From: Mustelus asterias
Taxonomy: Eukaryota
Assembly: GCF_964213995.1 (NCBI RefSeq)
Contig: NW_027590699.1
Coordinates: forward strand, 62,001-126,000
Length of the DNA stretch: 64,000 nt
Direction of reading: 5' to 3'
Positions 12,819 to 54,340 of this stretch are shown one piece after another. The notes under the pieces were generated by a model that searched no databases, was not told where the DNA came from, and was given only the letters and a program-made list of their open reading frames with translations. Numbering within the stretch: the first letter of the stretch is position 1; each line of letters opens with the position of its first letter. The translations under genes and the position numbers were made by a program.

Positions 12819-13205
12819 ACACATGAGGACGGCCTCAACCGGGATCTTGGGTTCATGTCACACTATCTGTAACCCCCACGACTTGCCTGGGCTTGCAAAA
12901 TCTCACTAACTGTCCTGGCTGGATACAATACACATCTCTTTAACCTGTGCTTAACCCTCTCTCCACTCACATTGTCTGTACCTTTAAGACTTGATTACGT
13001 TTAAAGACTCGTATTCCAACCATTATCTTGTAAATTGAGTTTGTGTCTTTATATGCCCTGTTTGTGAACAGAACTCCCACTCACCTGATGAAGGGGCAGT
13101 GCTCTGAAAGCTTGTGGCTTGTGCTACCAAATAAACCTGTTGGATTTTAACCTGGTGTTGTGAGATTACTTACTGTGCTTACCCCAGTCCAACGCCGGCA
13201 CATCT
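12819..13205 (+). mobile_element. Penelope-like element 3' end (GIY-YIG C-terminus plus pseudo-LTR)
   Basis: 12819-12872 encodes THEDGLNRDLGFMSHYL*, resembling the end of PLE endonuclease ORFs. It is followed by a UTR, a hammerhead motif, AATAAA and the CCTGTTGGA(C/T)TTTAACCTGGTGTTGT repeat found about 8 times in the window. Confidence 0.75.
13081..13116 (+). ncRNA. Minimal type-I hammerhead ribozyme motif (PLE-associated)
   Basis: CAC-CTGATGA-A-GGGGC-AGT-GCTCT-GAAA-GC-TT-GTG. Confidence 0.65.
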
Positions 13206-13357
13206 TTGGACTGTGGAAGGAAAACCGGAACATCCGGAAGAAACCCACACAGACACGGGGAGAATGTAGAAACTCTGCACAGACAGTGACCCGAGGCTGG
13301 AATTGAACCCGGGTCCCTGGCGCTGTTAGGCAGCTGCACTAACCACTGTGCCACCGG
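13200..13357 (-). mobile_element. HE1-like SINE 5' part
   Basis: GGTGGCACAGTGGTTAGTGCAGCTGCC...GGGTTCAATTCCAG head on the minus strand. Confidence 0.8.
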
Positions 13358-13412
13358 GCCACATGTCAGTGCCATCGCCCGACTCCAGCCCAGTCTCAGC
13401 TCATCTGGAACC

Positions 13413-13603
13413 CTCACCCATTCCATTGTGACCTCACACCCTCACCCATTCCATTGTGACGTCACACCCTCACCCATTCCATTGTGATGTCACACCCTCA
13501 CCCATTCCATGGTGACGTCACACCCTCACCCATTCCATTGTGACGTCACACCCTCACCCATTCCATTGTGACGTCACACCCTCAGCCATTCCATTGTGAC
13601 GTC
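13413..13603. repeat. 28-bp minisatellite (~6.8 units) built around a CRE palindrome
   Basis: The unit is CTCACCCATTCCATTGTGACGTCACACC. Four units keep a perfect TGACGTCA. Confidence 0.92.
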
Positions 13604-13959
13604 GGGGCTTCACTCTCCGATCACAATCCCTGCCGGCCTCCCACATGCAGCCTCAATGGCGGCAGTCAGCCCGGGTCTAACACTACAAGCTGCCGCTCCA
13701 TTTGGTACAAAGGGGGGGAACCGGGAAGTTCATTTCCGGGGTTTGGGTTTGAACAACATGTTTACAAAGCCTCTCGACCCACCCGCCACATTTATCATTC
13801 CCCGCACGCCGCCCTCTACCTCGTATTGATCTCGCTTCCAAACTAAAACCGGCCGTCCGTCGCCATTACCCGCAGTGATGTGGAGATGCCGGCGTTGGAC
13901 TGGGGTAAACACAGCAACAAGTCAAACAACACCAGGTTAAAGTCCAACAGTTTATCTGG

Positions 13960-14182
13960 TTCACCCGCACTGCGCATGCTTCAGGTCCCGCCCCTCATTC
14001 ATTCCGATTGGTTGGAGGACCAGCCGCTCCCATTCGGTCCTCCAGTCCCGCCCCTCATTCACTCCGATTGGTTGGAGGACCAGCCGCTCCCGTTCGGTCC
14101 CCCAGCCCCCACCCCTCTTCCTATTGGTCCGGAGCTGCCGTCAATCAGTCCCCGGGCATTGTGATGTGGAGCATGCGCAGTG
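13960..14182 (+). promoter_or_regulatory. ZNF promoter cassette (NRF1-like, GC box, CCAAT boxes, TGATTGAC)
   Basis: ACTGCGCATGCT...CCCGCCCCTCATTC..GATTGGTTGGAGGACCAGCCGCTCC (x2)...ATTGGTCCGGAGCTGCCGTCAATCA...GCATGCGCAG. Homologues are at 20010-20150, 32060-32195, 32625-32775 and 46175-46315. Confidence 0.65.
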
Positions 14183-15168
14183 TCATTGCTGTCCTTGGCG
14201 CTTGTTTGTCCCGGAGAAGCGGAGTCAGCGTTAGGCGGTGGCTGGGAGGATTTGGAAACACTTTGTGGATCCGCAAACCCTTCAGAATCATTGTCAGCTC
14301 CCTGGTTTGCAGCTGCGGGGCTTCTCCCTCCCTCCCTCCCGGGAACAGGCCCAGGTTAACGGCCCCATCCTGGCTCAGCCACTGGAGGATGGTTCACATC
14401 AGAGGATGGGGGAGGGGGACAATAAATAAGAGGTTACACTTTGGCCTCAAATCAATGAGGACTCTGATCTCTGGGAAGGAAGGAAACCCTGGGAGGTGGG
14501 CGGGGAGGATTCACAAACACCCGCTGGAGGCCCCAACACCCCCAATAAGACCCATTGGTTTTATTGTCAGTCTGCAGACAGGAGCTGGAGAACTGAATCC
14601 AGACCGAGGAGAGGGAGGGAGAAAACTGGGAGTGGAGGAAAGAAATGGTGAGATGGGTTTGGATTTCAGCCCAGGGAGGAGGGAGAGTGTGTGGGACGGG
14701 GATTTACTGATTTGGGGGAACAAGAAAGGAAAAAATGTTCCAGAGAAACTAGAATTGTCTGTTCAGAGTTTGTATCGTGTTCTGACAGTGATGACTTTTC
14801 TAAACTGTTTTTACAGGATATTGGAAGTGAAAGATTGGCAGACAGAAAACTCAAACCGGACATCACATCTGACAAAGTCATTCAGTTCCTTCGGAGCTGA
14901 ATATCATCGGTCTTTGAATATAGAAAGAGAAATATTTGTCTGTTCTGCCTGTGGGCAAATAAATTAAACATCAGTATGACCGGAAAAGCATCGAGACAAA
15001 CACACACCCGAGTGAGAGTGTTCCAGTGAACTGAATGTGGAAAGAGCTTTAACCAGTTACACAGCCTGAAAAAACATCACAGTTCACAGCAGGGTGAAAC
15101 TACGTGTATGTTGTGTGTGTGGATGTGGCTTGAACTGATCATCCAACCTGGAGAAACACAAGGGCACC

Positions 15169-16315
15169 ATGGAGAAACCGTGGAAATGTGTGGAGTGCGG
15201 GAAAGGATTCGGTTTCCCATCACAACTGGAAGTTCATCGGCGCAGTCACACTGGGGAGAGACCGTTCACCTGCTCTGTTTGTGGGAAGGGATTCACCCAT
15301 TCATACAACCTTCTGACTCACCGACGGGTTCACACTGGGGAGAGGCCGTTCACCTGCCCTGTGTGTGGGAAGGGATTCACTCGCTCATCCCACATTGTGA
15401 CACACCAACTTGTTCACACAGATGAGAGAATGTTTACATGTTCTGACTGTGAGAAGAGTTTTAAATGCAAAAAAGATCTGCTGACGCACCAACGTATTCA
15501 CACTGGGGAGAGACCATTCACCTGCTCTGTGTGGGAAAGGATTCATTCAGTCATCCCACCTGCAGACACATCAACTTGTTCACTCTGATAACAAACTTTT
15601 TAATTGTTCCCACTGTGCGAAGAGCTTTAAAAACAAAAAGGATCTGCTGACGCACCAATATACTCACACTGGGGAGAGGCCATTCACCTGCTGTGTGTGT
15701 GGGAAGGGATTCAGCCGTCCACCTGCCCTATTGAACCACCAGAGAATTCACACTGGGGAGAGGCCCTTCACCTGCTCAGACTGTGGGAAGGGATTCATTA
15801 ATTCATCCAACCTTCTGATACACCAGCAGCTCCATACAGGGGATCGACCGTTCACCTGCTCTGAATGTGGGAAGAGATTCACCCGTTCATACAACCTTCT
15901 GACACACCAGCAGGTTCACAGTGAGGAGATGCCATTCACTTGCTCCGTGTGTGGGAAGGGATTCACTCGTTCATCCAACCTATTGAATCACCAGCGAGTT
16001 CACACTGGGGAGAGGCCGTTCACCTGCTCCATGTGTGGGAAGGGATTCAGTCAGTCATCCAACCTGCTGACACATCAGAGAGTTCACAGTGGGGAGAGGC
16101 CATTTACCTGCTCTGTCTGTGGGAAGGGATTTTCTCATTTATCTTATCTTCTGAAACACCAGCGAGTTCACACTGGGGAGAGGCCATTCACCTGTAATGT
16201 CTGTGGAAAGGGATTTATTCAGTCATCCCACCTGCTAACACACCGGCGAGTTCACAAGGGACTGCAAGGTTTGGATTCTACACTTATTGATGCTGTTAAT
16301 CATATCCAGGTCTGA
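15169..16315 (+). pseudogene. 13-finger C2H2 ZNF with a single 2-bp frameshift (ZNF-B left copy)
   Basis: ORFs 15169..15588 and 15695..16315 join into one array if GT is restored in the GT run at ~15530. The right-arm paralog has TCTGTGTGTGGG there. This could be a real lesion or an assembly indel. Confidence 0.75.
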
Positions 16316-19300
16316 ATCATCTTCACTCTGACTTTTTTCTTCTGTTGAGGTTTGATATTCTGAATAAATGTGAAATAGACATTTGATTGAACCATTGTTG
16401 TAGATTTTTGTCTTTTCCATTTGAGTGTTTAACGTCACCAGGCTGGAGCTCAGAAAGGGCAATCTGAGGGAGGGTCATACAGTAGGAACAGAACTTCATT
16501 CTTGACCCAGTCCTTCAGGGTCACGCTGAGAGGGACAAACAGCACTTTGGTCTTTTTCGTCACTTTTCACTGACAGCAAAGTCCCCGTGTGGGTGAATCC
16601 TGAGGTGTGTGAGAAATGTGTCCCAGTCGTTCTTTTCCATGGTTCCGAGCTCCCAGACACAGAACAGAAGCTCCTTTACAACTGTGTTTAGAGTCAGGAA
16701 GAACAATGGTGAATGCGGGAAACGTGCTGTCAAAGATTGGTGTAAAACTGGGATCTATTCCTGACTGAGAGTGAAACGGCAGGTTTAGGTTTCCAGACTT
16801 AGAATGAAGAAAAGTGTAAAACATTTTAATGTGTGTGTGTGTCAGTCCTGGTTTATTGAACAGAAACTGGCTTCAAATAAATTGGTGGAAGTCTGCATTA
16901 AAGTAGCAGCTGGAGAAGTTCAAAGGAGCCTGTTAACTGCTGGGACAATGAGACAACAATTTGATTCCCAGATAGAGAAGGAGCTGCAGTGTGTGTCCAA
17001 GAATTCTCAGTTTTGTTGATGTGTGCTTCCCATACACTATCCTTTTAAATAAACCTCACTCCTATCAGCCTTTAACCATTATAAACAGAACAGAGAGAAG
17101 CTGAGCAGCAACAGAGCCCTGACTGACCATTTAAGAATGAGTGATGTGTTCAGCTGAAGTTTCCTGTTGGTAGTTTTCTGGGTGATCTCCTTATTTTGAT
17201 CATTCTCAGTGACCCCTGGGTGTGAACCTGCTCTCCTCTCTTTCAGACATTCACTCACTCAACATCTCCTCTCTCTCAGAAACTCAATCACTTAACCTCT
17301 CTCATCTCTCTAACACTCACTGAACATCTCTCTCTCTCTCTCTCTCCAGGCATTCACTCACACGTTACCTTCCATCTCTCTTACATTCTAACCTCGCTCC
17401 TCTCTCATTCACTTAACCTCTTCCCTCTCAGATACTGTGTTCATCACTTAATGTCTCTCTATCTTTCTTTCAAACACTCACTCATTTAACCTTCCTATTT
17501 CAGATCTGCTTAAACTTATTCATTGTTTTCTCTCTCTCGTTACCTCTCTCTGAAAAAGCACAAACACACTTCATCTCTCTTCACTGTCTGAGAAAACATC
17601 TAATTGATGGAGATTCAATCCTCTCTGTTTCTCTCTCCCACTTCCTCTGACAGGCCCTGACTCACTTTAAATCTCCTCTTTTCTAATAACCCTCTTTGGG
17701 AAAACTCATTTGTTCTCTAATTCCTCCTCATTTCTCCCAGTGATGACCCTCAGTCCATCTCCCAATTCAGTGAATGTGTTAAAAATCCAAATAATCTCCT
17801 TTCTTTATTGTTTAAAATGGGAATGGAGCTGAATGTAATGCTGAGACCGGCAGCAATCTGTGTGGTTGTTCTTGATGCTGTCAGAGTGAGTTCACCCTCA
17901 CAGGAAGGAAGACTGTTCACGGTGATAACATCAAACTGACGCCGGCTGTTTCATTCTCAGGTAACACAACTTCCTGTTTCTCTGCTGCCGGCTCCAAACC
18001 TCACATCTCACTTCTGAGCAGAAAATAAATCCAGGGACCACAATCTGGTGAGAACATCTGTCAATGCGGCCGATATCTGTCCACAGAGTCAGGGCAGAGT
18101 CACACAGGTCACATTGTGGTGACATTTACAAATGAACCAGTTATTTCTGTTCAGAGTTTCCATTCGCAGATAAAACCAGCTGTGTCTGTGGATCAGTTAC
18201 TGAGTTCCCTCTGTTCCCTGTAGCTGGGAACTGATAGCCTGCTCCCTTATATTTTATATCATTCTCTCTGTATTGCTTGTTTCCTCTATTTCTCAGCTTT
18301 TATCTTTGACCTTCCTCATCTTTCTGCTTTTTAAAATCTTCCTCAATTTTTCTCTCAGTCTTTCCGTCTCTCTCTTCCTCTGTAACTTTCTCAGGCTCTG
18401 TGTGTTCCTATTTAATCGACATGTTCAAAATCATGAAGAGTTTCTGATTGATTATAGAAGGAAAAACAGGGAGAGAAGCAGAAAAACCCAGCAGATCCGG
18501 CGGCATCTGTTGAGAGAGAAACAGTTAACATTTTGAGTCCATATAATTCTTCAGGGCAGGAAAAACATGGGTTATCCATCTTAGATTAGGGAATGTGATG
18601 GGGCGATTTAATAGAGATGTTTCAAATGACAAATGATTTATGATAGTTTCTCTCCATTGACACTATCTCCCAGGAGCAGGAAGTCTGTCGATGGTGAGAA
18701 TCTATTTCCCAGGTGCAGGAGGGTCTGTAAGCAGAGGATACAGAGATTTAATATAATTGACAACAGAACTGGAGGGGGTGATAAGGAAAATTTTTTACAC
18801 AATAACTGGATATGATCTGGAATGCACAAACTGACAGGTGCTAGAAGCAGGTTTAATAGCAACTTTCAAAGGGAATTGGATAAATACTTGCAGAAGGTAA
18901 ATTGGCAGAGTTATGGTCAATGGGATTAATTGGACAGTTCACTCATCTTTGTGACATTCTGAATGTTTCTCTCCTGAGGTTTTAATGTTTGATCTTTTCA
19001 GTCACAATGTGTCTCAAACAGAAGATTAAACCATTGGGTTTGATGAGCCTTCAGATCTGTTTCCTGTGTGTAACTTGAGAACTGCAGATAACCATGAGAA
19101 GGAACTGATTATTATCAGTTCCTCGAACAGATACACCTCAGATATCAGAAATCCCTGGAGTTCCCCATGTCCTCATTATTCTCCCCTTGAGTATAACAGC
19201 TCTCAGTCAGGCCGAGTCAGTCGCATGTGCCTCTGTCATGATGTTTCCACTTGTATTTTATCACTCACCTCCCAGTGACACTCACCATAACACAGACACC

Positions 19301-19778
19301 TTAAAATATCATTGTTCCCTTACACTTTGTCCTCCTATTATAATCAAATGTTTGTTGGGCCTCTTGTCTCCCTTAATGTCAGATTATCTGCAGTTAAAAT
19401 GACCTCAGAGACACTGAAACCGACTTCAGTGATTATTATACCAGACTCCAATCAGCCCCAGGAGCTGCAGTTGTAAAATACAGTAAGAGTTTTAACAACA
19501 CCAGGTTAAAGTACAGCAGAAATACAGCAGAATGTAAAATACAGCAGAATTGGAATAACAGCCAGGTTATTGTCTGATACTGACAGTGGCAGAGTAACAC
19601 ACACCGGAATCTAAATACATTATATCAATGGACCATGACTCACTCACACTATCAAATGAAACCTAAACTTTGGTTCTGGTGCACGTGATACTGACTGTAT
19701 TACCATTACATTGGATCTAATGCTGTGTTTACTAACAGACTGCAACGTGACTCTTATTATTTGAACAAACATTGTATC

Positions 19779-19960
19779 TGTTACACTCAGAGTAAGTCAG
19801 TGCTTTGCTGTGTTGTCTCTGTGCTCCATCCCCACTCTGATTGTATTGGAGCCTGTGTGTGTCACTGTTACACTCAGAGTAAGTCAGTGCTTTGCTGTGT
19901 TGTCTCTGTGCTCCATCCCCACTCTGATTGTATTGGAGCCTGTGTGTGTCATTGTTACAC
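19779..19960. repeat. 87-bp tandem repeat, 2 units
   Basis: TGTTACACTCAGAGTAAGTCAGTGCTTTG... starts at 19779 and 19866. Confidence 0.9.
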
Positions 19961-20009
19961 TGAGACTCTGTCACTGTGATTATTGGACAAACAGCAAGTT
20001 ACCGTCACA

Positions 20010-20430
20010 ATGCCCAGCTGATTGACGGCAGCGCGGACCAATGGGAAGAGGGGGCAGTACTGGAGGCCCGATCTGGAGCGGTCGGTCCTCCAACCAATAG
20101 AAGTGAATGAGGGGCGGGGCCAGCTTTGACTTGAGCATGCGCAGTGTGAGTAATGGCAATGGAGGCGGCTTTTGTTTTGGGCTCGGAAATCTGTTCGAGG
20201 TGATTGGCGGTACGGAGAGAGCAATGGATCGCCCAGGTGGGTGGAAACGCTGCGTAAGCATGTTGTGTAAGCCGCAAACCGCGGAAGAGAGCTTCCCGGA
20301 CCCAGTTTGTACCGAGCAGGACTGCAGCTCCTCATGTTCGTTAACGTTCGCCATCTTTATTGGGGGCAATATGCAGCAGTGCGCACGTGCGGCCGCCATG
20401 TCTGTAGAGGGCAATGTTGTCAATCAGTGG
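20010..20430. promoter_or_regulatory. CpG-island promoter cassette, probably bidirectional
   Basis: Reverse-oriented homologue of ~13650-14165: TGATTGACGG-9nt-CCAAT, GGGGCGGGG, GCATGCGCAG, plus YY1-like GCCGCCATG. Confidence 0.6.
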
Positions 20431-20597
20431 GAGGCGCTTGTTCCCCAGTGTTCAGAATGGAGACAACTTGTCCATCAAACTGCATCAACCCTCTGAGTCC
20501 CAATATCTTATTGATGAGGCAGAGCAGTGACAGAGAAGGAAAAAGAAAGGGAAAGTAAAACAGAAAATGCTGGAAAATCTCAGCAGATTTGATAGCA

Positions 20598-21189: not shown

Positions 21190-21675
21190 TGGGGAGTGAG
21201 AATAGAACCAACGTTTCGAGACTGGACGACCCATAGTCAGAGTGTACACGCGTAAACAGAGCATGTAAACTTCAACACCCTCCACGTACCCTTGTACACC
21301 TCTATCAATCTACTTTGCTCCAAGGAGAACAACCCCAAGTTATCCAGCCTAACATTGTAACTATAATTCCTCATCCCTGGAACCATTTTGATAAATCTCC
21401 TCTGCACCCTGTCAAGGAGCCTCGCATCCTCCATAATGTGTGGTGTTCACTGGTTTGCACAGACCCAGGTATTCTGTGTTCCTGTCTGTGATCTCATCAC
21501 ATACTTACAATTGCACAGTGACACCACCCCCACTCCCTGGGGATTTCCCCAACTGGGAGATTTTTCTCTGATGCCAATGCTTCTGATATCTTTCCAGCTG
21601 CAGGCTCCAGCAGGAGATTTTAATATTAAAATCAGTTAAATTGTTTCAGAGGTGAGTGTTTGTGACCATTCACAG

Positions 21676-30930: not shown

Positions 30931-30972
30931 TGTTCCTTTGTAGTCACTGATATTTAACTGATATTCCTTTAT

Positions 30973-31013
30973 AGTCACCTGATGAAGGAGCAGCGCTCCG
31001 AAAGCTAGTGGCT
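30973..31013 (+). ncRNA. Minimal hammerhead ribozyme motif in a PLE end (best-preserved copy)
   Basis: AGTCAC-CTGATGA-A-GGAGC-AGC-GCTCC-GAAA-GC-TA-GTGGCT: 6-bp stem I, perfect 5-bp stem II, intact core. Confidence 0.72.
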
Positions 31014-31139
31014 TTTGCTACCAAATAAACCTGTTGGACTTTAATCTGGTGGTGTGAGATTTCTTACTCTATTCTCTCTCCACAGATGGTCAGTCCTGCT
31101 GAGATTTTCCAACATTTACTGTCTTTATCTCAGTGATAA

Positions 31140-31955
<816 letters not shown>

Positions 31956-32873: not shown

Positions 32874-33023
32874 TTCACAATAAGAAGTCTCAACACCAGG
32901 TTAAAGACCAACAGGTTTATTTGGTAGCAAATGCCATAAGCTTTCAGAGTGCTGCTCCTTCGTCAGATGGAGTCTGACGAAGGAGCAGTGTTCACCCCAG
33001 TCCAACGCCGGCATCTCCACATC
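32874..33023. mobile_element. Short inverted PLE insertion with a hammerhead motif (minus, 32934-32970)
   Basis: TSD AGAACTG at 32867-32873 and 33024-33030. The empty site is in the paralog at ~14590. Confidence 0.75.
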
Positions 33024-37089: not shown

Positions 37090-38500
37090 ACCTCCATTAT
37101 GAAGGAACCTAAACAAAATTCCATGAATTCCAATGAAAGGTTATACAGACACGGTAAACATTTACATAAAAACTTTAACAATCAGCATTGATATTGATGA
37201 AACTTGGAAGTTGCTGAGTTCAATCATTTCTGACACAGCAGCAGCAACATTTGGTAAAGGTGGAACCCACAACAAAGACCGGTTTGAGACCCACTCAGCA
37301 GAGATGACACCTGTCATTGAAGCAAAAAAAAGCCTACCTGATGGACAACATAAACCCAACAGCTGGAACATTGCATCAGTTGAAAGAAGTGTTGAAACAG
37401 GGAGATACGCGGCTAATAAACACCGGACAATCCTACACCAATAATTCCAAACTGCCTGTGATAATGAATATCTCTGTTGTGTTTGATGGGATCAAGAAAG
37501 TGGTGCTACCAGCACCAAACTTGGCCCCCTGAAATTGGCAGATGGTGATGTTTTCATCGACAGAAGTCCCGCTGGTTTGAAGTTTAAAGTTTTAAAATTT
37601 ATTTATTGTCACAAATAGGCTTACGTTAACACTGCAACGAAGTTACTGTGAAAATACCCAAGGCGCCACATTCCGGCACCTGTTCGGGTGCACTGAGAGA
37701 GAATTTCAAATTGTGGGAGGAAACCGGAGCACCCAGAGGAAATCCATGCAGACATAGGGCGAACATGCAGACTCCGCACAGCCAGTGATCCAAGCCGGGA
37801 ATCAAACCTCAGTCCCTGCGCTGTGAGGCAGCAGTGTTAACCACTGTGCCACCGGGCCTGTGACCTATACTGAGACACAGACATCACACAATCTCTGTTT
37901 GATTCTCCTGCAGTTTCCTGTCATGGTTGAGTTCTGATGTGGAGATGCCGGCGTTGGACTGGGGTAAACACAGTAAGAGTTTTAACAACACCAGGTTAAA
38001 GTCCAACAGGTTTATTTGATAGCTAATGGCATTTGCTAACAAATAAACCTGTTGGACTTTAACCTGGTGTTGTTAAAACTCTTACATGGTTGAGTTCAAC
38101 AAGGAACCCTCAACATTTGAGCTGGAAAAGGCCATTGATTGCTGAGCAAGTAGAAAGGCTCCCAGCAAGGATGGAATTCCAGCTGAACTGCTCAAACACA
38201 AAGTCCCATCCACTGCCACATCTTCACAACCTCCTCCTCTTTTGGGGTGTGAGACTGGTTCACAGGAGATATGTGACATGAAAATTTTCACAATATACAG
38301 AAACAGCAGTGGTAGAGATTGCAACAACTACAGGGACATCTCACTCCTTAGCATCACTGGGAAGGCCTTCGCAAGGGTCATGTTTAAAAGACTCCAGCTA
38401 CTTGCAGACTGAGTGTATCCAGAAGCACAGTGCGGTTTCTGTGCTGACAGATCTGCAGCGAACATGATCTTCTCCACACACCAGTGACAAGAGAAGTGAA
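37090..38500 (+). mobile_element. Degenerate RTE-clade LINE, interrupted by a SINE (~37580-37855) and a PLE insert
   Basis: Remnants KAPSKDGIPAELLK, NNYRDISLLSITGKAFARV and VYPEAQCGF...MIFS...QEK. Confidence 0.75.
37935..38084. mobile_element. Fold-back PLE mini-insertion
   Basis: ~55-bp inverted arms and TSD CATGGTTGAGTTC at 37922-37934 and 38085-38097. Confidence 0.85.
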
Positions 38501-41620: not shown

Positions 41621-43461
41621 CTTCAAAATCCAATAATATTCAGGTTATGATAAACTCCACAACTCTGTCAGATTTTGATGTGATGCTTGGGTGGAATTTC
41701 CCAACTGCAAATACTCCTCTTCTAATTGCCTGTGAAATTGATTTAAAACGGAAAAAAGAGAGTGAGAAAGAGCCCACAAAAACACAAAGGCAGATTGTGA
41801 AATTGAGCTGAATGAATCTGGTAATTTGTGGGGCCGGCACAAGGAAAAAGTGACCATGAAAATTGCTGAATTGTCATAAAAACCAACTGGTTTACGCATG
41901 GCCGTACCTGGGGTTAGAGAAAATGGGCAGGGTTTTTGCTCGCTCTCTGCGCTGTGTTTTGTGGAGATGGGAGGCCGCAGGCCGCCTGCTGGTGACAGGA
42001 TCTTATGATCTCACCGTTGTCAATGGGGCTTCCTGTTGAACACACCCCTCACTCTGGGAGACCCGCAGCAGGGGTGCACTGTCGGCGGAACCGTAAGATC
42101 CTGCCGGTGAGAACAGCAGCAAGATTTCGACGAATGTTTCATGATGTACATAATGATTTCCAGGAGTAAAAACAGTGCAGAATTTGATGGTCAATGTAAG
42201 ATTAGAAGTGGAAGAGAAATGGACAAGAACACAGAAATAAACCATTCCTGACTGAAAAATACTGTGGGTTAGGTTGATCGGCCATGGTAAATTGTCCCGT
42301 AGTGTCAGGGGATTAGCAGGGTAAATACATCGGATTACAGGGATAGGGCTTGGTTGGGATTGTTGTCGATGCAAGCTCAACAGGCCAAATGGCCTCCTGC
42401 ACTGTAGAGATTCTATGATTCTAAGATAAAGCTACTAAACCAGCAGCATAACTAAAATACAACCATTATTAGAGGCAGAGGAAGTTAGACAATGACAGAG
42501 AGGTGATCAGGGAGGGCAGAGGTGAAACAGAGCAATGAATGGACATGGAATCAGATCCACAGTAGTCAGAACAGCCCCAGAGAGGTGGAACCAGAGTACA
42601 GATAACAGAGCACATCATTTAAAACTCTAAATTGTGGGTGAATGGTCACAAACACTCACCTCTGAAACAATTTAACTGATTTCAATATTAAAATCTCCTG
42701 CTAGAGCCTGCAGCTGGAAAGATATCAGAAGCATTGGCATCAGAGAAAAATCTCCCATTTGAAGAAATCCCCGGGGAGCGGGGGTGATGTCACTGTGCAA
42801 TTGTAAGTGTGTGATGAGATCACAGACAGGAACACAGAACATCTGGGTCTGTGCAAACCAGTGATCACCACACATTATGGAGGATGTGAGGCTCCTTGAC
42901 AGGGTGCAGAGGAGATTTATCAAAATGGTTCCAGAGATGAGGAATTATAGTTACAATGTTAGGCTGGATAACTTGGGGTTGTTCTCCTTGGAGCAAAGTA
43001 GATTGATAGAGGTGTACAAGGGTACATGGAGGTGTCAAAGTTTACATGCTCTGTTTACACGTGTACAAGCTCTGACTATGGGTCATCCAGTCTCAAAACA
43101 TTGGTTCTATTCTCTCTCCACAGATGCTGTCAGATCTGCTGAGATTTTCCAGCATTTATTGTTTTTACTTTCCCTTTCTTTTTCCTTCTCTGTCACCGCT
43201 CTGCCTCATCAATAAGACATTGGGACTCAGAGGGTTGATGCAGTTTAATGGACATGTTCGCTTCTCGGCCTTTTGGCTAAGATCAAGTGTAGTATTGACA
43301 TGCTGTGCTTGGTTGAAGTCATGAGGTTACATTTTAGCTGCATTTGAAGCAATTTTTAAAAGCGGCATCTCGGCCTTTTGGCTAAGATGCAAATGAGATC
43401 AAGCCTTGGAGGAGGAGCTATGCCTACTCCAATCAGCTTGGATCAGGTAGATCAAGCCCAA

Positions 43462-43890
43462 TAAGAAGTTTAACAACACCAAGTTAAAGTCCAACAGGTT
43501 TATTTGGTAGCAAATGCCACGAGCTTTCGGAGTGCTGCCCCCTCGTCAGGTGGAGTGGAGATCTGCTTACAAACAGGGCATGATGTGGACATGCCGGCGT
43601 TGGACTGGGGTAAGCACAGTAAGAAGTCTCACAACACCAGGTTAAAGTCCAACAGGTTTATAAACCAGTTGGACTTTAACCTGGTGTTGTGAGACTTCTT
43701 ACAAACAGGGCATACAGAGACATAAACTCAATTTACAGAATAATGATTGGAATGCGAATCCTTACAGGTAATCAAGTCTTAAAGGTACAAACAACGTGAG
43801 TGGAGAGAGCGTTATCACAGGTTAAACAGACGTGAATTGTCTCCAGACAGGACAGCCAGTGAGATTCTGCAAGTCCAGGCAAGCTGTGGG
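43462..43890 (-). mobile_element. PLE 3' end with hammerhead motif (43517-43553), containing a nested fold-back mini-PLE
   Basis: Homologous to 12875-13170. The nested insert 43581-43697 has TSD CTTACAAACAGGGCA. Confidence 0.78.
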
Positions 43891-43891
43891 T

Positions 43892-45879: not shown

Positions 45880-46315
45880 TCCCACTGATTGACAACATTG
45901 CCCTCGACAAACATGGCGGCCGCACGTGCGCACTGCTGCATATTGCCCCCAATAAAGATGGCGAACGTTAACCCGGGACGAACATGAGGAGCTGCAGCCC
46001 TGCTCGGTACAAACTGGGTCCGGGAAGCTCTCTTCCGCGGTTTGCGGCTTACACAACATATTTACGTAGCGTTTCCACCCACCTGGACGATCCATTGCTC
46101 TCTCCGTACCTCCAATCACCTCGAACAGATTTCCGAGCCCAAAACAAAAGCAGCTGTCCATCGCCATTACTCTGTGCGCATGCGCCGATCAAAGCTGGCC
46201 CCGCCCCTCATTCGCTCCTATTGGTTGGAGGACCGGCCGCTCCAGATCGGTCCTCCAGCACTGCCCCCTCTTCCCATTGGTCCGCGCTGCCGTCAATCAG
46301 CTGGGCATTGTGACG
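45880..46315. promoter_or_regulatory. CpG-island promoter cassette (mirror of 20010-20430)
   Basis: TGCGCATGCGC, CCCCGCCCC, ATTGG boxes, CCGTCAATCA. Confidence 0.6.
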
Positions 46316-46356
46316 GTAACTTGCTGCTTGTCCAATAACAAGTGACAGAGTCTCAG

Positions 46357-46620
46357 TGTAACAATGACACACACAGACTCCAATACAATCAGAGTGGGGA
46401 TGGAGCACAGAGACCACACAGCAAAGCACTGACTTACTCTGAGTGTAACAATGACACACACAGGCTCCAATACAATCAGAGTGGGGATGGAGCACAGAGA
46501 CAACACAGCAAAGCACTGACTTACTCTGTGTAACAATGACACACACAGGCTCCAATACAATCAGAGTGGGGATGGAGCACAGAGACAACACAGCAAAGCA
46601 CTGACTTACTCTGAATGTAA
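46357..46620. repeat. 85-87-bp tandem repeat, 3 units
   Basis: Units start at 46357, 46444 and 46529. Mirror of 19779-19960. Confidence 0.9.
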
Positions 46621-49600
46621 CAAATACAATGTTTGTTCAAATAATAAGTCACGTTGCAGTATGTTAGTGAACACAGCATTTGATCCAATGTAATGGTAAT
46701 ACAGTCAGTATCTAGTGCACCATAACCAAAGTTTAGGCTTTATTTGATGGTGTGAGTGAGTCATGGTCTATTGATATAATGTATTTAGATTCCAGTGTGT
46801 GTTACTCTGCCACTGTCAGTATCAGACAATAACCTGTCTGTTATTCCAATTCTGCTGTATTTTACAACTGCAGCTCCTGGGGCTGATTGGAGTCTGGTAT
46901 AATAATCACAAAGGTCGGTTTCAGTGTCTCTGAGGTCATTTAACTGCAGGTAATCTGACATTAAGGGAGACAAGAGGCCCAACAAACATTTGATTACAAT
47001 AGGAGAACAAGGTGTAAGGGAGCAATGATATTTTAAGGTGTCTGTGTTATGGTGAGTGATAAAATCGAAGTGGAAACATCATGACAGATACATGTGACTG
47101 ACTCGGCCTGACTGAGAGCTGTTATACTCGAGGCGAGACTAATGAGGACATGGGGAACTCCAGGGATTTCTGATATCTGAGGTGTGTCTGTTAGAGGAAC
47201 TAAAAATAATCAGTTCCTTCTCATGGTTATCTGCAGTTCTCAAGTTACACAGACACACAGGAAACAGGTCTGATAGCTCATCAAACCCAACGTTTTAATA
47301 TTCAGTTTGAGACACATTGTGACTGAAAAGATCAAATATTAAAACCTTAGGGGAGAAACATTCAGAATGTCACAAAGATGAGTGAACTGTCCAATTAATC
47401 CCATTCACCATAACTCTGCCAATTTACCTTCTGCAAGTATTTATCCAATTCCCTTTGAAAGTTAATATTAAACCTGCTTCTAGCACCTGTCAGTTTGTGC
47501 ATTCCAGATCATATCAAGTTATTGTGTAAAAAATTCTCCTTATCACCCCTTCCAGTTCCGTTGTTAATTATATTAAATCTCTGTGTCCTCTGCTTACAGA
47601 CCCTCCTGCACCTGGGAAATAGATTCTCTCCATCGACAGACTTCCTGCTCCTGGGAAATAGTGTCAATGGAGAGAAACTATCATAAATCATTTGTCATTT
47701 TAAACATCTCTATTAAATCACCCCATCACATTCCCTAATCTAAGATGGAAAGCCCATGTTTTTCCTGCCCTCAAGAATTATATGGACTCAAAATGTTAAC
47801 TGTTTCTCTCTGAACAGATGCCGCCGGACCTGCCGGGTTTTTCTGCTTTTCTCCCTGCTTTTCCTTCGAAAATCAATCAGAAACTCTTCATGATTTTGAA
47901 CATCTTGATTAAATAGGAACACACAGAGCCTGAGAAAGATACAGAGGGGGAGAGAGAGACGGAAAGACTGAGAGAAAAATTGAGGAAGAATTTAAAAAGC
48001 AGAAAGATGAGGTGGTCAAAAATAAAAGTTGAGAAACAGAAGAAACAAGCAATACAGAGAGAACAATCTAGAATAAAAGGGAGCAGGCTATCAGTTCCCA
48101 GCTGTGGGGAGCAGAGGGAACTCAGTAACTGATCCACAGACACAGCTGGTTATATCTGCGAATGGAAACTCTGAACAGAAATAACAGGCTCATTTGTAAA
48201 TGTCACCACAATGTGATCTGTGTGACTCTGCCCTGACTCTGTGGACAGATATAGGTCACATTGACAGATGTTCTCACCAGATTGTGGTCCCTGGATTTAT
48301 TTTCTGCTCAGAAGTGAGATGTGAGGTTTGGAACCGGCAGCAGAGAAACAGGAAGTTGTGTTACCTGAGAATGAAACAGCCGGTGTCAGTTTGATGTTAT
48401 CACCGTGAACAGTCTTCCTTCCTGTGAGGCTGAACTCACTCTGACAGCATCAAGAACAACCACACAGATTGCTGCCAGTCTCAGCATTACATTCACCTCC
48501 ATTCCCATTTTAAACAATAAAGAAAGGAGATTATTTGGACTTTTAACACATTCACTGAATTGGGAGATGGACTGAGGGTCATCACTGGGAGAAGTGAGGA
48601 GGAATTAGAGAACAAATGAGTTTTCCCAAAGAGGGTTATTAGAAAAGAGGAGATTTAAAGTGAGTCAGGGCCTGTCAGAGGAAGTGGGAGAGAGAAACAG
48701 AGAGGATTGAATCTCCATCAATTAAATGTTTTCTCAGACAGCGAAGAGAGATGAAGTTTGTTTGTGCTTTTTCAGAGAGAGGTAATGAGAGAGAGAAAAG
48801 AATGAATAAGTTTGAGCAGATCTGAAATAGGAAGGTTAAATGAGTGAGTGTTTGAAAGAAAGATAGAGAGACATTAAGTGATGAACACAGTATCTGAGAG
48901 GAGAGAGGTTAAGTAAATGTGAGAGAGGAACGAGGTTAGAATGTAAGAGAGATGGAAGGTGAGGTGTGAGTGAATGCCTGGAGAGAGAGAGAGAGAGAGA
49001 GAGATGTTCAGTGAGTGTGAGAGAGATGTTGAGCGATTGAGTTTCTGAGAGAGAGGAGATGTTAAGTGAATGATTGTCTAAAAGAGAGGAGAGGAGGTTC
49101 ACACCCAGGGGTCACTGAGAATGATCAAAATAAGGAGATCACCCAGAAAACTACCAACAGGAAACTTCAGCTGAACACATCACTCATTCTTAAATGATCA
49201 GTCAGGGCTCTGATGCTGCTCAGCTTCTCTCTGTTCTGTTTATAATGGTTAAAGGCTGATAGGAGTGAGGTTTATTTAAAAGGATAGTGTATGGGAAGCA
49301 CACATCAACAAAACTGAGAATTCTTGGACACACACTGCAGCTCCTTCTCTATCTGGGAATCAAATTGTTGTCTCATTGTCCCAGCAGTTAACAGGCTCCT
49401 TTGAACGTCTCCAGCTCCTCCTTTAATGCAGACTTCAACCAATTTATTTGAAGCCAGTTTCTGTTCAATAAACCAGGACTGACACACACACATTAAAATG
49501 TTTTACACTTTTTTTCATTTTTAGTCTGGAAACCTAAACCTGCCGTTTCACTCTCAGTCAGGAATAGATCCCAGTTTTACACCAATCTTTGACAGCACGT

Positions 49601-50006
49601 TTCCAGCATTCACCGTTGTTCTTCCTGACTCTAAACACAGTTGTAAAGGAGCTTCTGTTCCGGGTCTAGGAGCTCTGAACCATGGAAAAGAACGACTGGG
49701 ACACATTTCTTACACACCTCAGGATTCACCCACACGGGGACTTTGCTGTCAGTGAAAAGTGACGAAAAAGAACAAAGTGCTGTTTGTCCCTCTCAGCGAG
49801 ACCCTGAAGGACTGGGTCAAGAATGAAGTTCTGTTCCTACTGTATGATCCTCCCTCAGATTGCCCTTTCTGAGCTCCAGCCTCGTGACGTTAAACACTCA
49901 AATGGAAAAGACAAAAATCTACAACAATGATTCAATCAAATGTCTATTTCACATTTATTCAGAATATCAAACCTCAACAGAGGAAAAAAGTCAGAGAGAA
50001 CATGAT

Positions 50007-51328
50007 TCAGACCTGGATATGATTAACAGCATCGATAAGTGTAGAATCCAAACCTTGCAGTCGTTTGTGAACTTGCTGGTGTGTTAGCAGGTTAGAAATC
50101 ATAGAAATCATAGAAACCCTACAGTGCAGAAGGAGGCCATTCAGCCCATCGAGTCTGCACCGACCACAATCCCAACCAGGCCCTACCCCCACATATTTAC
50201 CCGCTAATCCCACTAACCTACGCATCTCAGGGGCAATTTTTTTAACCTGGCCAATCAACCTAACCCGCACATCTTTGGACTGTGAGAGGAAACCGGAGCA
50301 CCCGGAGGAAACCCACGCAGACACAGGGAGAACGTGCAAACTCCACACAGACAGTGACCCGAGCCGGGAATCGAACCCGGGACCCTGGAGCTGTGAAGCA
50401 GCAGTGCTAACCACTGTGCTACCGTGCTACCGTTAGATGACTGAATAAATCCCTTTCCACAGACGTTACATGTGAACGGCCTCTCCCCAGTGTGAACTCA
50501 CTGGTGGTTCAATAGGTTGGGTGAAAGAGTGAATCCCTTCCCACATACGGAGCAAGTGAATGGCCCTTCCTCACTGTGAACCTGCTGGTGTGTCAGAAGG
50601 TTGTATGAACGGGTGAATCCCTTCCCACATTCAGAGCAGGTGAACGGTCGATCCCCTGTATGGAGCTGCTGGTGTATCAGAAGGTTGGATGAATTAATGA
50701 ATCCCTTCCCAGGGATTCTGAGCAGGTGAAGGGCCTCTCCCCAGTGTGAATTCTCTGGTGGTTCAGTTGGGCAGATGGGCGGCTGAATCCCTTCCCCCAC
50801 ACACAGCAGGTGAATGGCCTCTCCCCAGTGTGAGTATATTGGTGCATTAACAGATCCTTTTTGTTTTTAAAGCCCTTCTCACAGTCAGAACAATTAAAAA
50901 GTTTGTTATCAGAGTGAACAAGTTGATGTGTCTGCAGGTGGGATGACTGAATGAATCCTTTCCCACACACAGAGCAGGTGAACGGTCTCTCCCCAGTGTG
51001 AATGCGTTGGTGTGTCAGCAGATCTTTTTTGCATTTAAAACTCTTCTCAGTCAGAACATGGAAACAGTCTCTCATCAGTGTGAACAAGTTGGTGTGTCAC
51101 AATGTGGGATGAGCGAGTGAATCCCTTCCCACACACAGGGCAGGTGAACAGCCTCTCCCCAGTGTGAACCCGTTGGTGAGTCAGAAGGTTGTATGAATGG
51201 GTGAATCCCTTCCCACAAACGGAGGAGGTGAACGGTCTCTCCCCAGTGTGACTACAGCAATGAACTTCCAGTTGTGATGGGAAACCGAATCCTTTCCCGC
51301 ACTCCACACATTTCCACGGTTTCTCCAT
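50007..51328 (-). pseudogene. ZNF-B right-arm pseudogene
   Basis: Frameshifts (~51050, ~50712), C>S and C>W changes, CGA>TGA at 50498-50500, two fingers missing, a SINE in the last finger, and the promoter deleted. Confidence 0.9.
50097..50431 (-). mobile_element. Young HE1-like SINE inside a ZNF exon
   Basis: TSD GTTAGA at 50091-50096 and 50432-50437. Confidence 0.93.
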
Positions 51329-52169
51329 GGTGCTGGTGCCCTTGTGTTTCTCCAGGTTGGATGATCAGTTGAAACCTCGTCCACACACACAACATACATG
51401 TAGTTTCACCCTGCTGTGAATTGTGTGATGTTCTTTCAGACTGTTAAAGATCTTTCCTCAGTCAGTTCACTGGAACACTCTCAATCGGGTGTGTGTTTGT
51501 TTCACTGCTTTTACGGTCACACTGATGTTTAAAATCTTTGCCGACAGACAGAAGAGTCAAACATTTCTCCTCCCATATTCAAAGACCAATGATATTCAGC
51601 TCCGAATGAACAAAATGACTTTGCGAGTCATGATGTTCGGTTTGAGTTTTCTGTCTGCCAATCCTCCACTTCCAATATCCTGTAAAAAAAATTTGGAAAA
51701 GTCATCAGCGTCAGTCCGGGATAGAAATTCTGAACAGACAATTCTAGTTTCTCTGGGACATTTTTTCCTCTCTTGTTCCCCCAAATCTGTAAATCCCTGT
51801 CCCACACACTCTCCCTCCTCCCTGGGCTGAAATCCAAACCCATCTCAATGGGTGAGGGTGTGACGTCACAATGGAATGGGTGAGGGTTCCAGATGAGCTG
51901 AGACAGGGCTGGAGTCGGGCGATGGCACTGACATGTGGCCCGGTGGCACAGTGGTTAGTGCAGCTGCCTAACAGCGCCAGGGACCCGGGTTCAATTCCAG
52001 CCTCGGGTCGCTGTGAGGAATTTGCACATTCTCCCTGTGTCTGTGTGGGTTTTCTCCAGGTGCTCCGGTTTCCTCCCACAGTCTAAAGATCTGCAGGTTA
52101 GACGGATTGGCCATGATAAATTAAATTAACCCTTGGCATCAGCAGGATTGTATTCTGTAACTTGATTTT

Positions 52170-52984
52170 AGAACATAGAGAACATAGAAAAACAATGGAA
52201 TACATAGACATAGAACAGTACAGCACAGAACAGGCCCTTCGGCCCACGATGTTGTGCCGAGCTTTATCTGAAACCAAGATCAAGCTATCCCACTCCCTAT
52301 CATCCTGGTGTGCTCCATGTGTCTATCCAATAACCGCTTAAATGTTCCTAAAGTGTCTGACTCCACTATCACTGCAGGCAGTCCATTCCACACCACAACC
52401 ACTCTCTGCGTAAAGAACCTACCTCTGATATCCTTCCTATATCTCCCACCACGAACCCTATAGTTATGCCCCCTTGTAATAGCTCCATCCACCCGAGGAA
52501 ATAGTCTTTGAACGTTCACTCTATCTATCCCCTTCATCATTTTATAAACCTCTATTAAGTCCCCCCTCAGCCTCCTCCGCTCCAGAGAGAACAGCCCCAC
52601 CTCCCTCAACCTTTCCTCATAAGACCTACCCTCCAAACCAGGCAGCATCCTGGTAAATCTCCTCTGCACTCTTTCCAGCGCTTCCACATCCTTCTTATAG
52701 TGAGCTGACCAGAACTGCACACAATATTCCAAATGTGGTCTCACCAAGGTTCTGTACAGTTGCAGCATAACCCTACGGCTCTTAAACTCCAACCCCCTGT
52801 TAATAAAAGCTAACACACTATCGGCCTTCTTCACAGCTCTATCCACTTGAGTGGCAACCTTTAGAGATCTGTGGATATGGACCCCAAGATCTCTCTGTTC
52901 CTCCACAGTCTTCAGAACCCTACCTTTGACCCTGTAATCCACATTTAAATTAGTCCTACCAAAATGAATCACCTCACAATTATC
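52170..52984 (-). mobile_element. CR1 LINE 3' ~0.8 kb
   Basis: ORF 52280..53011 (NCEVIHFG...RVVVVWNGLP) and a TAGAACA-type tail. Confidence 0.92.
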
Positions 52985-53196
52985 ATGGAATGGGTGAGGG
53001 TGTGACGTCACAATGGAATGGGTGAGGGTGTGACGTCACAATGGAATGGGTGAGGGTGTGACGTCACAATGGAATGGGTGAGGGTGTGACGTCACAATGG
53101 AATGGGTGAGGGTGTGACGTCACAATGGAATGGGTGAGGGTGTGACGTCACAATGGAATGGGTGTGGGTGTGACGTCAGAATGGAATGGGTGAGGG
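52985..53196. repeat. 28-bp CRE minisatellite, 7 perfect TGACGTCA
   Basis: TGACGTCA at 53003, 53031, 53059, 53087, 53115, 53143 and 53171. Confidence 0.93.
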
Positions 53197-53244
53197 TTCC
53201 AGATGAGCTGAGACTGGGCTGGAGTCGGGCGATGGCACTGACAT

Positions 53245-53545
53245 GTGGCCCGGTGGCACAGTGGTTAGTGCAGCTGCTTAACAGCACCAGGGACCCGGGT
53301 TCAATTCCAGCCTCGGGTCGCTGTCTGTGCAGAGTTTCTACATTCTCCCCGTGTCTGTGTGGGTTTCCTCCGGGTGTTCCGGTTTCCTTCCACAGTCCAA
53401 AGATGTGCTGGTTAGACGGATTGGCCATCATAAATTGCCACTTGGTATCAGGGGGATTAACAGGTAAATATGTGGATAAGGCCTGGATGGGATTGTTGTC
53501 GGTGCAGGCTCGATGGGCTGAATGGCCTCCTTCTACACTGTATTT
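53245..53545 (+). mobile_element. HE1-like SINE (partial direct copy at ~51935-52120)
   Basis: GGTGGCACAGTGGTTAG head, V-domain and GGCTGAATGGCCTCC tail. Confidence 0.85.
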
Positions 53546-53957
53546 TATTATTCATTCTTATAAATTAATTACTTCTTTGAATGAAGGTGGTCTTGATGAT
53601 GATGTGGACGTGGCTGGAAGCTCATCTTGGGATGAACTATTTCACCCTGGTTGTGAACAGCCTGGTTCAGCCTCAGACAGTTGCCAGGAGGAGAGATAAA
53701 GTTGGCGAGGGAGTGGAGTTTGTAGTGGGGACTGAACACAATGGGTTCAGTCTTCCCAGTATTTATATGAAATAAATTTCTGTTCTTTCAGTACTGGATG
53801 TCAGACAAGTCCGGATGGTGTGTGGGTTGGAGAGGAACTTGGAGCTGATGCTGTTCACAGGGTTTGGAAATTCTGTCAAAGTTCCTGTTGAGTTGTAGAT
53901 GTATAAAATCTCTCTCCTCACTTCCGGCCTCCTACTTCCCTCTGTTTCCACTCAGAG

Positions 53958-54340
53958 TGTGGAGATGCCGGCGTTGAACTGGGGTAAGCACAGAAAGAAG
54001 TCTCACAACACCAGGTTAAAGTCCAACAGGTTTATTTGGTAGCACAAGCCTTTCGGAGCGCTGCTCCTTCATCAGGTGAGTGGGAGTTCTGTTCACAAAC
54101 AGGGCACAAAGACACAAACTCAATTTACAAGATAATGGTTGGAATGCGAGTCTTTACAGGAAATCAAATCTTAAAGGTACAGACAATGTGAGTGGAGAGA
54201 GGGTTAAGCACAGGTTAAATAGATGTGTATTGTCTCCAGCCAGGACAGTTAGTGAGATTTTGCAAGCCCAGGCAAGTCGTGGGGGTTACAGATCGTGTGA
54301 CATGAACCCAAGATCCCAGTTGAGGCCGTCCTCATGTGTG
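53958..54340 (-). mobile_element. PLE 3' end (mirror of 12819-13205); hammerhead has a deletion after GAAAG
   Basis: The minus strand reads CACCTGATGAAGGAGCAGCGCTCCGAAAGGCTTGTG. Confidence 0.75.

Follow-up and report, generated by a model that had tools for sequence, protein, structure and literature searches.

Organization of the hammerhead-bearing copies

The window (the whole 64,000-nt stretch of Mustelus asterias DNA analysed) contains five hammerhead motifs, carried by copies of one Penelope-like element (PLE) family in which the order is ORF end, ~210 nt of pseudo-LTR (pLTR), hammerhead, AATAAA and tail. As a first-pass annotation had proposed, the motifs are at the places claimed, with C3 at 13085(+), 30979(+), 32966(-), 43549(-) and 54075(-); four are complete and one (copy 5) is broken by a 6-nt deletion. 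The fragments show the traits of PLE insertions, namely 5' truncation, inverted copies, an optional 30-40-nt tail and variable target-site duplications, and no full-length copy with two pLTRs was found in the 64,000-nt window.

Copy 1 (12819..13200, + strand) is a 5'-truncated PLE made up of the ORF end, the pLTR and part of the tail; it lies in a ZNF-gene-like stub, where 12774-12819 matches 24896-24941 at 91%. Its minimal hammerhead (min-HHR, 13081..13117, +) has stem I at 13081-84/13114-17, the core at 13085-91 and an extra A at 13092, followed by stem II at 13093-97/13101-05 with two G.U pairs (C11.1 changed to U), GAAA at 13106-09, G15.2-C16.2, U16.1 at 13112 and H17=U at 13113. The AATAAA at 13130..13135 (+), 16 nt past the cut site, is a candidate pLTR poly(A) signal; ATAAA is invariant in 8/8 aligned fragments of the family. 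The tail (13174..13200, +) has its 3' end clipped in copy 1, while other copies end at its 5' boundary.

Copy 2 (30975..31068, +) is short, 5'-truncated and tailless, and has the best-preserved min-HHR (C3 at 30979, H17=A at 31007, 5-bp Watson-Crick stem II); its stem I reads 6 bp because two bases differ from the other copies, and these two bases are probably host flank. Copy 3 (32874..33023, -; min-HHR at 32934-32970, stem I CCAU/AUGG, H17=U) includes a short inverted duplicate of its own core, forming a 16-bp hairpin that locks the min-HHR, plus an inverted tail; it is flanked by a 7-bp target-site duplication (AGAACTG) and lies antisense within the 5' region of a ZNF gene. Copy 4 (43454..43890, -) is a 5'-truncated pLTR with a min-HHR at 43517-43553 (G as the extra nucleotide, 4-bp stem II, H17=C); the hammerhead-less inverted pair nested in it (~43590-43705, 16-bp target-site duplication) represents insertion of the element into its own pLTR.

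Copy 5 (53966..54339, -) is the counterpart of copy 1 in an inverted segmental duplication (10996-13200 versus 56143-53966, 93% over 2212 nt), with 352/370 identical positions and 1046/1118 in the flank. Copies 1 and 5 are thus one insertion duplicated together with its flank, so the five motifs represent four insertions and five independent insertions were rejected. The deletion past GAAA took away G15.2-C16.2-U16.1-H17 and part of stem I; with its cut site deleted, copy 5 therefore cannot cleave in cis. The family also occurs without a hammerhead, as a head-to-head pair (37935..38084) with a tail on one arm only and a 12-13-bp target-site duplication, as a 3' fragment with tail in a ZNF promoter region (13876..13960, -; ~7-bp target-site duplication), and as a 40-nt fragment without tail (19480..19519, -) with an empty site in a duplicated region.

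Identity of the motifs

The window was scanned with a min-HHR descriptor (stem I of at least 3 bp, CUGANGA, 0-1 extra nt, stem II of at least 4 bp, GAAA, 0/2/4 nt, UH), which gave exactly four matches, the four intact copies. Dinucleotide shuffles of the window (200) gave 0.02 matches per shuffle (no match in 196, a single one in 4), ruling out a chance match as the origin of the motifs; because the copies are one repeat family, the matches count as roughly one independent event, which still clearly exceeds chance. Judged by their sequence, the motifs are confirmed as minimal type I hammerheads. The core CUGANGA ... GAAA ... UH is complete and in type I order in 4/5 copies, copy 5 being without UH, and the reduction of stem III to an AGCU palindrome holds in 4/4 intact copies, where a palindromic 15.2/16.2 is seen with no loop 3. 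An extra A after the core had also been described: one unpaired nucleotide is present between 9 and 10.1, being A in 4/5 copies but G in copy 4. The bases at the cleavage site are U, A, U and C as reported; "never G" is true of these four copies, although its chance is ~0.32 under equal base use. Helix II is 4-5 bp long across copies, with G10.1-C11.1 as G-C in copies 2, 4 and 5 and changed to G.U in copies 1 and 3 through CpG decay, and the loop-closing C-G pair of stem II is broken (C.A) in copies 3 and 4.

The Rfam hammerhead models, suggested earlier as a check, did not recover the motifs: there was no hammerhead family among the matches of the whole window (E<=1) and no hammerhead match around copy 2 (E<=10). 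Having neither a helix III nor an Rfam match, the motifs fall outside the canonical type I hammerheads, which are marked by a helix III and by a tertiary contact between loop and bulge. The Rfam microRNA matches in the window are the inverted arms of the PLE family and other palindromes, all below the gathering score.

The parent element

The proposal that the motifs lie in the ends of a shark PLE was borne out, since they belong to the pLTR of a 5'-truncated element whose ORF end is identical to GIY-YIG proteins. Copies 1 and 5 both start with the last 17 codons of this ORF; in copy 1 these codons and the stop (12819..12872, +) give the GIY-YIG C-terminus THEDGLNRDLGFMSHYL*, with 100% identity over 17 aa to 5/5 candidates, one of them with Pfam GIY-YIG. 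C3 of copy 1 is 213 nt past the ORF stop, i.e. in the pLTR downstream of the ORF, and upstream loose ends of contigs in two runs extend the same ORF. Pfam GIY-YIG was found in protein P0004 and RVT_1 in P0006 and P0007, both aligning to the same C-terminus, while P0005 has CX4CxxC and CCHH, the marks of Neptune/Nematis; the CX4CxxC linker is present in P0005, P0006 and P0007 and is of a type common to Nematis too. The full-length RVT_1-bearing relatives have 63% and 52% identity to P0005. These proteins point indirectly to a single ORF with RT and, at its C-terminus, a GIY-YIG (CCHH), of which the window holds the last 17 aa, and suggest a parent element of Neptune type, told from protein marks rather than from a tree and with a linker shared with Nematis. 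Contig loose ends place the likely ATG after the tail, ~95 nt past the cut site. A spliced pLTR intron ending before the end of the tail was rejected, weakly, as no GT-AG joint occurred among 15 of 41 joints.

The PLE family carrying the motifs is very abundant: contigs matching copy 1 numbered 53,998 of 20,984,476 in run X1 and 4,232 of 468,826 in run X15. Reads matching the family were 0 in X22 and 8 in X21, and conservation was looked at on contigs instead of raw reads. Scans of metagenome, viral and prokaryote collections with a pLTR pattern returned 0 loci, and protein-based locus searches returned 146, 36 and 146 pattern matches, 0 of them confirmed.

Covariation and conservation

Stem I had been said to covary, and one C-G to U-A change does exist, in one copy; 34/36 cells are paired, with 1 two-sided change among 9 pairs (n=4 copies), but 125/500 shuffles reach an equal score. 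Linked changes between paired sites are not displayed by the read table. The covariation claim is thus overstated and its support weak. Regarding the view that stem II changes are G-U tolerant, a G.U is indeed found at C11.1, but those changes (C11.1 to U) are CpG transitions, as are the changes at the loop-closing pair, and G-U changes were rejected as proof of selection.

Conservation was read from 40 of 122 variant rows of the read table, in which depth is not copy number. Among these 40 rows 0/11 invariant sites were polymorphic (P=0.42), so the predicted excess of core conservation over the flanking pLTR background is not significant. Also among the 40 rows, N7 and H17 were alone in the core in showing 10-85% other letters in X1; they are its two free positions, an outcome with a chance of 1 in 78. 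G12 to A makes up 5% of depth in X1 and 15% in X15, versus ~32% and 45% for C11.1 to U, and the comparison CpG at 12879-80 gave 20%/30% and 79%/8%; this CpG asymmetry test is reference-biased, suggestive in X1 only, and was given no weight. In X21, another organism, 5 reads keep GAAAGCUUGUG and the sequence past it differs. Signs of decay are seen in the CpG transitions (C11.1 of copies 1 and 3, the loop-closing pair), in G12 to A, in the deletion of copy 5 and in the hairpin of copy 3.

Folding and the possible cutting of zinc-finger transcripts

As a monomer, copy 1 has a modelled stem I pair probability of <=0.001; that of copy 2 is 0.86 in a 54-nt fragment and 0.04 in an 86-nt fragment, and the hairpin fold of copy 3 (-34.6 kcal/mol) leaves its hammerhead with a pair probability of 0. 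In models that leave out tertiary contacts, Mg2+ and protein, double hammerheads were less stable than the best competing fold by 7-16 kcal/mol, short fragments included.

The suggestion that some copies could cut ZNF transcripts found no support, with orientation, folding, distance and the inactivity of published monomers all against it, and cutting of neighbouring zinc-finger transcripts by scattered single copies is unlikely. We would give a very small chance to the idea that some copies cut or regulate such transcripts, either as protein-helped monomers or by trans pairing with element RNA. By putative gene models a ZNF-like stub holds copy 1 in sense orientation, ~600 nt beyond a promoter-like region rich in CCAAT, and the ZNF at 40919-41644 may have copy 4 in an intron, also in sense; the hammerhead of PAc, the Poseidon element of the lizard Anolis carolinensis (Frangieh et al. 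2024, PMC11167929), cleaves only when the element's protein is bound, and the family may have abundant RNA, if X15 with its 4,232 contigs is an RNA run, as guessed. Yet copy 3 lies antisense and is locked in a hairpin, the cut site of copy 5 is gone, stem II of copy 1 contains two G.U pairs, one of them G10.1.U11.1, and copy 4 combines a G at the extra position with a 4-bp stem II. In-context stem I pair probabilities are 0-0.04 in the folding model, and intact copies on the same strand are separated by 17.9 kb (1-2) and 10.6 kb (3-4), with other promoters in the interval. Published min-HHRs (PMC4209133) have no helix III of their own, show no detectable cleavage singly and cleave weakly as dimers, in agreement with the earlier statement that PLE minimal hammerheads are thought to need a dimer. 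Copies near genes are moreover expected because the family is so abundant. A narrower version, slightly less probable still, would make the sense copies in ZNF transcription units (1, perhaps 4) conditional cut sites, silent on their own and completed by trans AGCU/AGCU pairing with the element's RNA or by its protein as a chaperone. If true, host zinc-finger transcripts would be cut or shortened whenever a Neptune element is active, so that a transposon would trigger a switch on genes of a class that may hold transposons in check; the finding would matter far more if host transcripts were cut by dispersed copies that depend for this on protein or trans RNA.

Interpretation

We favor, with a probability of about 0.85, the reading that these are pLTR min-HHRs of one abundant shark Neptune-type PLE, cutting in dimers of the parent and scattered as passengers. 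The 5'-truncated insertions would carry the pLTR min-HHR along; in the tandem transcript of the parent element two motifs may join by AGCU/AGCU pairing to form a double hammerhead that would cut after H17, probably with the assistance of the RT-endonuclease protein. Selection would hold the core in active lineages and tolerate change in N7, H17 and the stems, whereas the copies scattered in the window would decay neutrally with no useful cutting of host RNA.

The most credible competitor, still improbable, is that even the parent element has the motif as a vestige, never cleaving in vivo, and that this stretch of the pLTR matters for the AATAAA, promoter or protein-binding sequence next to the motif. 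The non-significant excess of core conservation would suit it, PAc inserts in vitro with no need of hammerhead cleavage and no reads ended at its cut site (PMC11167929), and whole PLE clades thrive without canonical hammerheads (PMC8557442). Against a vestige, the within-family variation falls on N7 and H17, the X21 reads retain GAAAGCUUGUG while the following sequence differs, and, in hosts ranging from cnidarians to a turtle (PMC4209133), the core, the extra nucleotide, G10.1-C11.1 and the palindrome are retained with differing stems. That the short copies form a retrozyme or SINE family, non-autonomous but amplifying independently, rather than plain truncations, seems the least probable of all. 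Copies 2 and 3 do start within a few bases of stem I, and one chondrichthyan genome is reported to contain tandem non-LTR retrozymes (Li et al. 2026 preprint, 10.64898/2026.07.22.740005); still, 5' ends are staggered (12819, 43890, 30975, 32970-equivalents and three hammerhead-less starts), the window has no tandem array of units, and the read table has no site where many molecules begin or end, contigs being weak for this.

Comparison with known systems

Non-LTR retrozymes (10.64898/2026.07.22.740005) share type I hammerheads from PLE pLTRs with the window motifs, but they are tandem units each with a hammerhead while the copies here are single and dispersed, the nearest two motifs being 2 kb apart on opposite strands; a tandem retrozyme identity was therefore rejected. 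PAc (PMC11167929) likewise has its hammerhead near the pLTR-ORF junction; copies stop on one or the other side of the tail, which agrees with two start sites of reverse transcription as in PAc, and insertion into its own pLTR is paralleled by copy 4. PAc belongs to a different clade and its ORF starts inside the hammerhead, whereas here the ATG likely comes after the tail.

With the Neptune clade of endonuclease-bearing PLEs (Craig et al. 2021, PMC8557442) the family shares a C-terminal GIY-YIG with CCHH, 5' truncation, inverted arms, a 30-40-nt tail and a hammerhead in the pLTR; the clade has a CX2-5CxxC linker and P0005 has CX4CxxC, although the window holds 17 ORF codons and the linker is seen in database proteins sharing them.

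Min-HHRs in pLTRs of metazoan PLEs were reported in 2014 (Cervera & De la Peña, PMC4209133), with no chondrichthyan in Table S1 or in part of the Fig. S3 rows (supplement parts 1-2 of 3). Our observations extend that report to a shark Neptune-type family, which adds little, but the abundance of this family offers statistical power for testing selection on min-HHR cores and H17 ends in vivo. The short stem III and extra A, put forward as a family hallmark, are both already in the published consensus, where the nucleotide between 9 and 10.1 is H. Like the min-HHRs of that report, the window motifs are type I, with CUGANGA and one extra nucleotide, G10.1-C11.1, GAAA, a palindromic 15.2/16.2 without loop 3, UH and a short helix I, and are mostly single dispersed copies out of truncated elements. 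The nearest listed example is the painted turtle Chrysemys picta bellii (5-bp helix II, 4-bp helix I), from which the window motifs differ in stem sequence, 3-nt loop II and host; both have G15.2-C16.2 (AGCU), and CCAAAUAAA lies downstream of the min-HHR in copy 1 as it does in the turtle.

Hammerhead-bearing insertions in the window

The first-pass annotation had described minimal type I hammerheads (min-HHR) in the ends of Penelope-like elements (PLE), and direct reading of the sequence confirmed all five motifs at the positions claimed, within insertions at 12819-13200(+), 30975-31068(+), 32874-33023(-), 43454-43890(-) and 53966-54339(-) (copies 1 to 5). The copy 1 motif comprises stem I UCAC, core CUGAUGA, an extra A, stem II GGGGC/GCUCU with a 3-nt loop, GAAA, GC, UU and GUGG. 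Copies 2, 3 and 4 share this layout, with A, U and C respectively as cleavage-site base (H17), and in copy 5 a 6-nt deletion directly 3' of GAAA has removed the cut site. A min-HHR descriptor scan matched the four intact copies in the window versus 0.02 matches per dinucleotide shuffle (200 shuffles); Rfam hammerhead gave no match in the whole window and none in the 200 nt around copy 2.

The element runs from an ORF end through a pseudo-LTR (pLTR) of ~210 nt to the hammerhead, an AATAAA located 16 nt 3' of the cut site, and a tail present in some copies and absent from others. Eight fragments of the family, with staggered 5' ends, were found in the window. The copy 3 insertion, flanked by a target-site duplication of 7 bp, carries a second, inverted version of its core as well as a tail in inverted orientation. 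Target-site duplications of 12-13 bp and 16 bp belong, respectively, to a head-to-head pair at 37935-38084 and to a member of the family nested within copy 4. The duplicated region has an empty site at the counterpart of fragment 19480-19519. Staggered 5' ends, inverted arms, optional tails and target-site duplications are all features described for PLEs. The family is very abundant: 53,998 of 20,984,476 contigs of sequencing run X1 and 4,232 of 468,826 of run X15 were placed on copy 1, depth not being equivalent to copy number. Against copy 1, run X22 had no reads, and the 8 from X21 belong to a related form.

The parent element

At their 5' end copies 1 and 5 carry 17 codons plus the stop codon, THEDGLNRDLGFMSHYL* (12819-12872 in copy 1). 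When a 45-aa window frame containing these codons was used as query, 5/5 candidate proteins were 100% identical over the 17 residues, including P0004, which has a Pfam GIY-YIG domain, in support of the placement of the hammerheads in PLE ends; the E-values were weak (0.09-1.0), as expected from so short a match. P0005, annotated in Mustelus asterias, includes an RT-EN linker bearing CX4CxxC and an endonuclease of the CCHH type; two full-length relatives (881-882 aa) with RVT_1 are 63% and 52% identical to it, and loose ends upstream of 12818 in X1 and X15 extend the same reading frame. Taken together, protein identities, linker, RVT_1 relatives and loose ends indicate a PLE with an endonuclease, of which the repeat represents the 3' end. 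The CX4CxxC-type linker is reported in the accessible text of Craig et al. 2021 (PMC8557442) for Neptune and Nematis and not for Penelope/Poseidon; judged from sequence, the clade is most likely Neptune.

Pieces of the endonuclease also lie in frame within annotated shark proteins P0005 and P0008-P0011 (XRCC5, PPP1R12A-like, USP8 isoforms and two uncharacterised), with 77-95% identity in P0008-P0011, and represent either exonisation or gene-model artefacts.

Covariation and selection

The case for covarying stems is thinner than first proposed. Paired cells amount to 34/36 across the four intact copies, a two-sided change affects only one of nine pairs (C-G to U-A in stem I of copy 3 alone), and 125/500 shuffles reach the observed score. 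C11.1 to U in copies 1 and 3 is a transition at CpG, as are the changes at the loop-closing pair (loop base in copy 1; copies 3 and 4), which break the pair in copies 3 and 4. Moreover, copies 1 and 5 represent a single insertion, since both lie within an inverted duplication (2212 nt, 93% identity) and the element (352/370 identical) is about as similar as its flank (1046/1118).

A large inverted segmental duplication (~9400-20500 versus ~45800-58700; 88-94% identity) includes two zinc-finger (ZNF) genes; the duplicate at 50432-51847 has nothing corresponding to the promoter region 13450-14649 and is apparently frameshifted. Each arm has a near-perfect palindrome (10587-10683 and 57539-57629) with sub-threshold Rfam microRNA matches.

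Of 122 variant rows, 40 were listed, and 24 of the 40 had 10-85% other letters in X1. None of these 24 was at the 11 invariant core positions (P=0.42, not significant alone), and they included both free positions, the variable core position N7 (18%) and H17 (43%), an outcome that random variation at two core sites would give with a chance of 1 in 78. Catalysis should be abolished by the change G12 to A, which reaches 5% of depth in X1 and 15% in X15 and fits CpG decay in dead copies. Set against the refuting condition of the first-pass annotation, no excess conservation of CUGANGA/GAAA over flanking pseudo-LTR, these patterns lean, short of a significant excess, towards selection on the core in source lineages followed by neutral decay after insertion.

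Possible effects on ZNF transcripts

The further proposal that the copies could cut ZNF transcripts, and so regulate host ZNF genes, fared poorly, and we consider it very improbable. In its favor, copy 1 lies in sense orientation within a ZNF-like stub, and ZNF 40919-41644 may have copy 4 in an intron, also in sense, according to gene models built on linker arrays, CCAAT/CpG clusters and the alignment of paralogs rather than on RNA. However, copy 3 is antisense to the plus-strand ZNF 33462-34500, inside its 5' region, and on the strand of copy 3 itself the core is predicted to be hidden in a 16-bp hairpin; copy 5 lacks the cut site; and in the same models copy 2, the best motif, lies 4 kb beyond the preceding ZNF, with the following promoter ~1.1 kb downstream. 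Folding in 86-nt context also predicts first stem I pair probabilities of only 0, 0.04, 0 and 0.016 for copies 1-4. For all 10 pairings, a double hammerhead is predicted to be less stable than the best alternative fold, by 7-16 kcal/mol when flanks are short and by 17-72 kcal/mol when they are longer, in a model that omits tertiary contacts, Mg2+ and protein. Intact copies that share a strand are separated by 10.6 and 17.9 kb. Any effect of sense copies on host RNA would more likely come from AATAAA than from cleavage. We favor, with a probability of about 0.85, the reading that these are pLTR hammerheads of a Neptune-type PLE, which in the parent transcript probably function as dimers aided by protein and would be inert as the single dispersed copies seen here.

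The antisense of stem I and core start resembles a consensus 5' splice site in copy 1 (13079-13087, CAG|GTGAGT) and copy 2 (30975-30981, CAG|GTGACT); in copy 3, antisense inside its ZNF gene, a stem I change has removed this resemblance.

Other features of the window

Just beyond the end of copy 4, 43257-43400(+) carries a U2 snRNA 5' fragment of ~37 nt ending after the branch-point helix (Rfam, 50.6 bits), with a second, altered U2-like stretch ~90 nt further on; these may be part of a U2 pseudogene or the edge of a U2-targeting element, the U2 site being common to Keno and Utopia elements. An intronless RPS11-like retrocopy at ~31530-31955(+), its frame open and matching Pfam Ribosomal_S17 and S17_N, lies between a tandem repeat (~31146-31500) and a ZNF promoter just downstream. 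GC-rich frames at 21640-22669(+), without a Pfam match, appear similar to a Tx1/L1-type retrotransposon ORF in its C-terminal part. Long open frames at 59061-61955(+) and 43989-45755(-), of 964 and 588 aa, encode apparently young LINE endonuclease-RT, which we take to be CR1-type.

Comparison with published hammerheads

The short stem III and extra A had been considered special to a shark family. Both are the published min-HHR norm as far as the accessible text of Cervera & De la Peña 2014 (PMC4209133) goes: min-HHR are defined there as being without helix III or loop 3, and the recurring traits include a nucleotide between 9 and 10.1, G10.1-C11.1 and a palindromic 15.2-16.2. The motif listed for the painted turtle combines G15.2-C16.2 with helices II and I of 5 and 4 bp and is followed downstream by CCAAAUAAA; its GAAA column, detached in the extracted text, is positioned through the consensus line. 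According to the same text, most published motifs are single and probably derived from truncated PLEs, and single min-HHR show no cleavage and dimers low cleavage. In the available portion of Frangieh et al. 2024 (PMC11167929), cleavage by the hammerhead of a lizard Poseidon element depends on that element's protein, and insertion in vitro does not require the hammerhead. A 2026 preprint (10.64898/2026.07.22.740005), in the part accessible, describes tandem retrozymes from one chondrichthyan and reports that 1/9 frog dimers cleave. In the literature searched, whose coverage leaves out most subscription journals, no paper was found that deals with hammerheads of shark PLEs as such. The feature is real and was rightly recognized in the first-pass annotation, and it is of a kind described since 2014.
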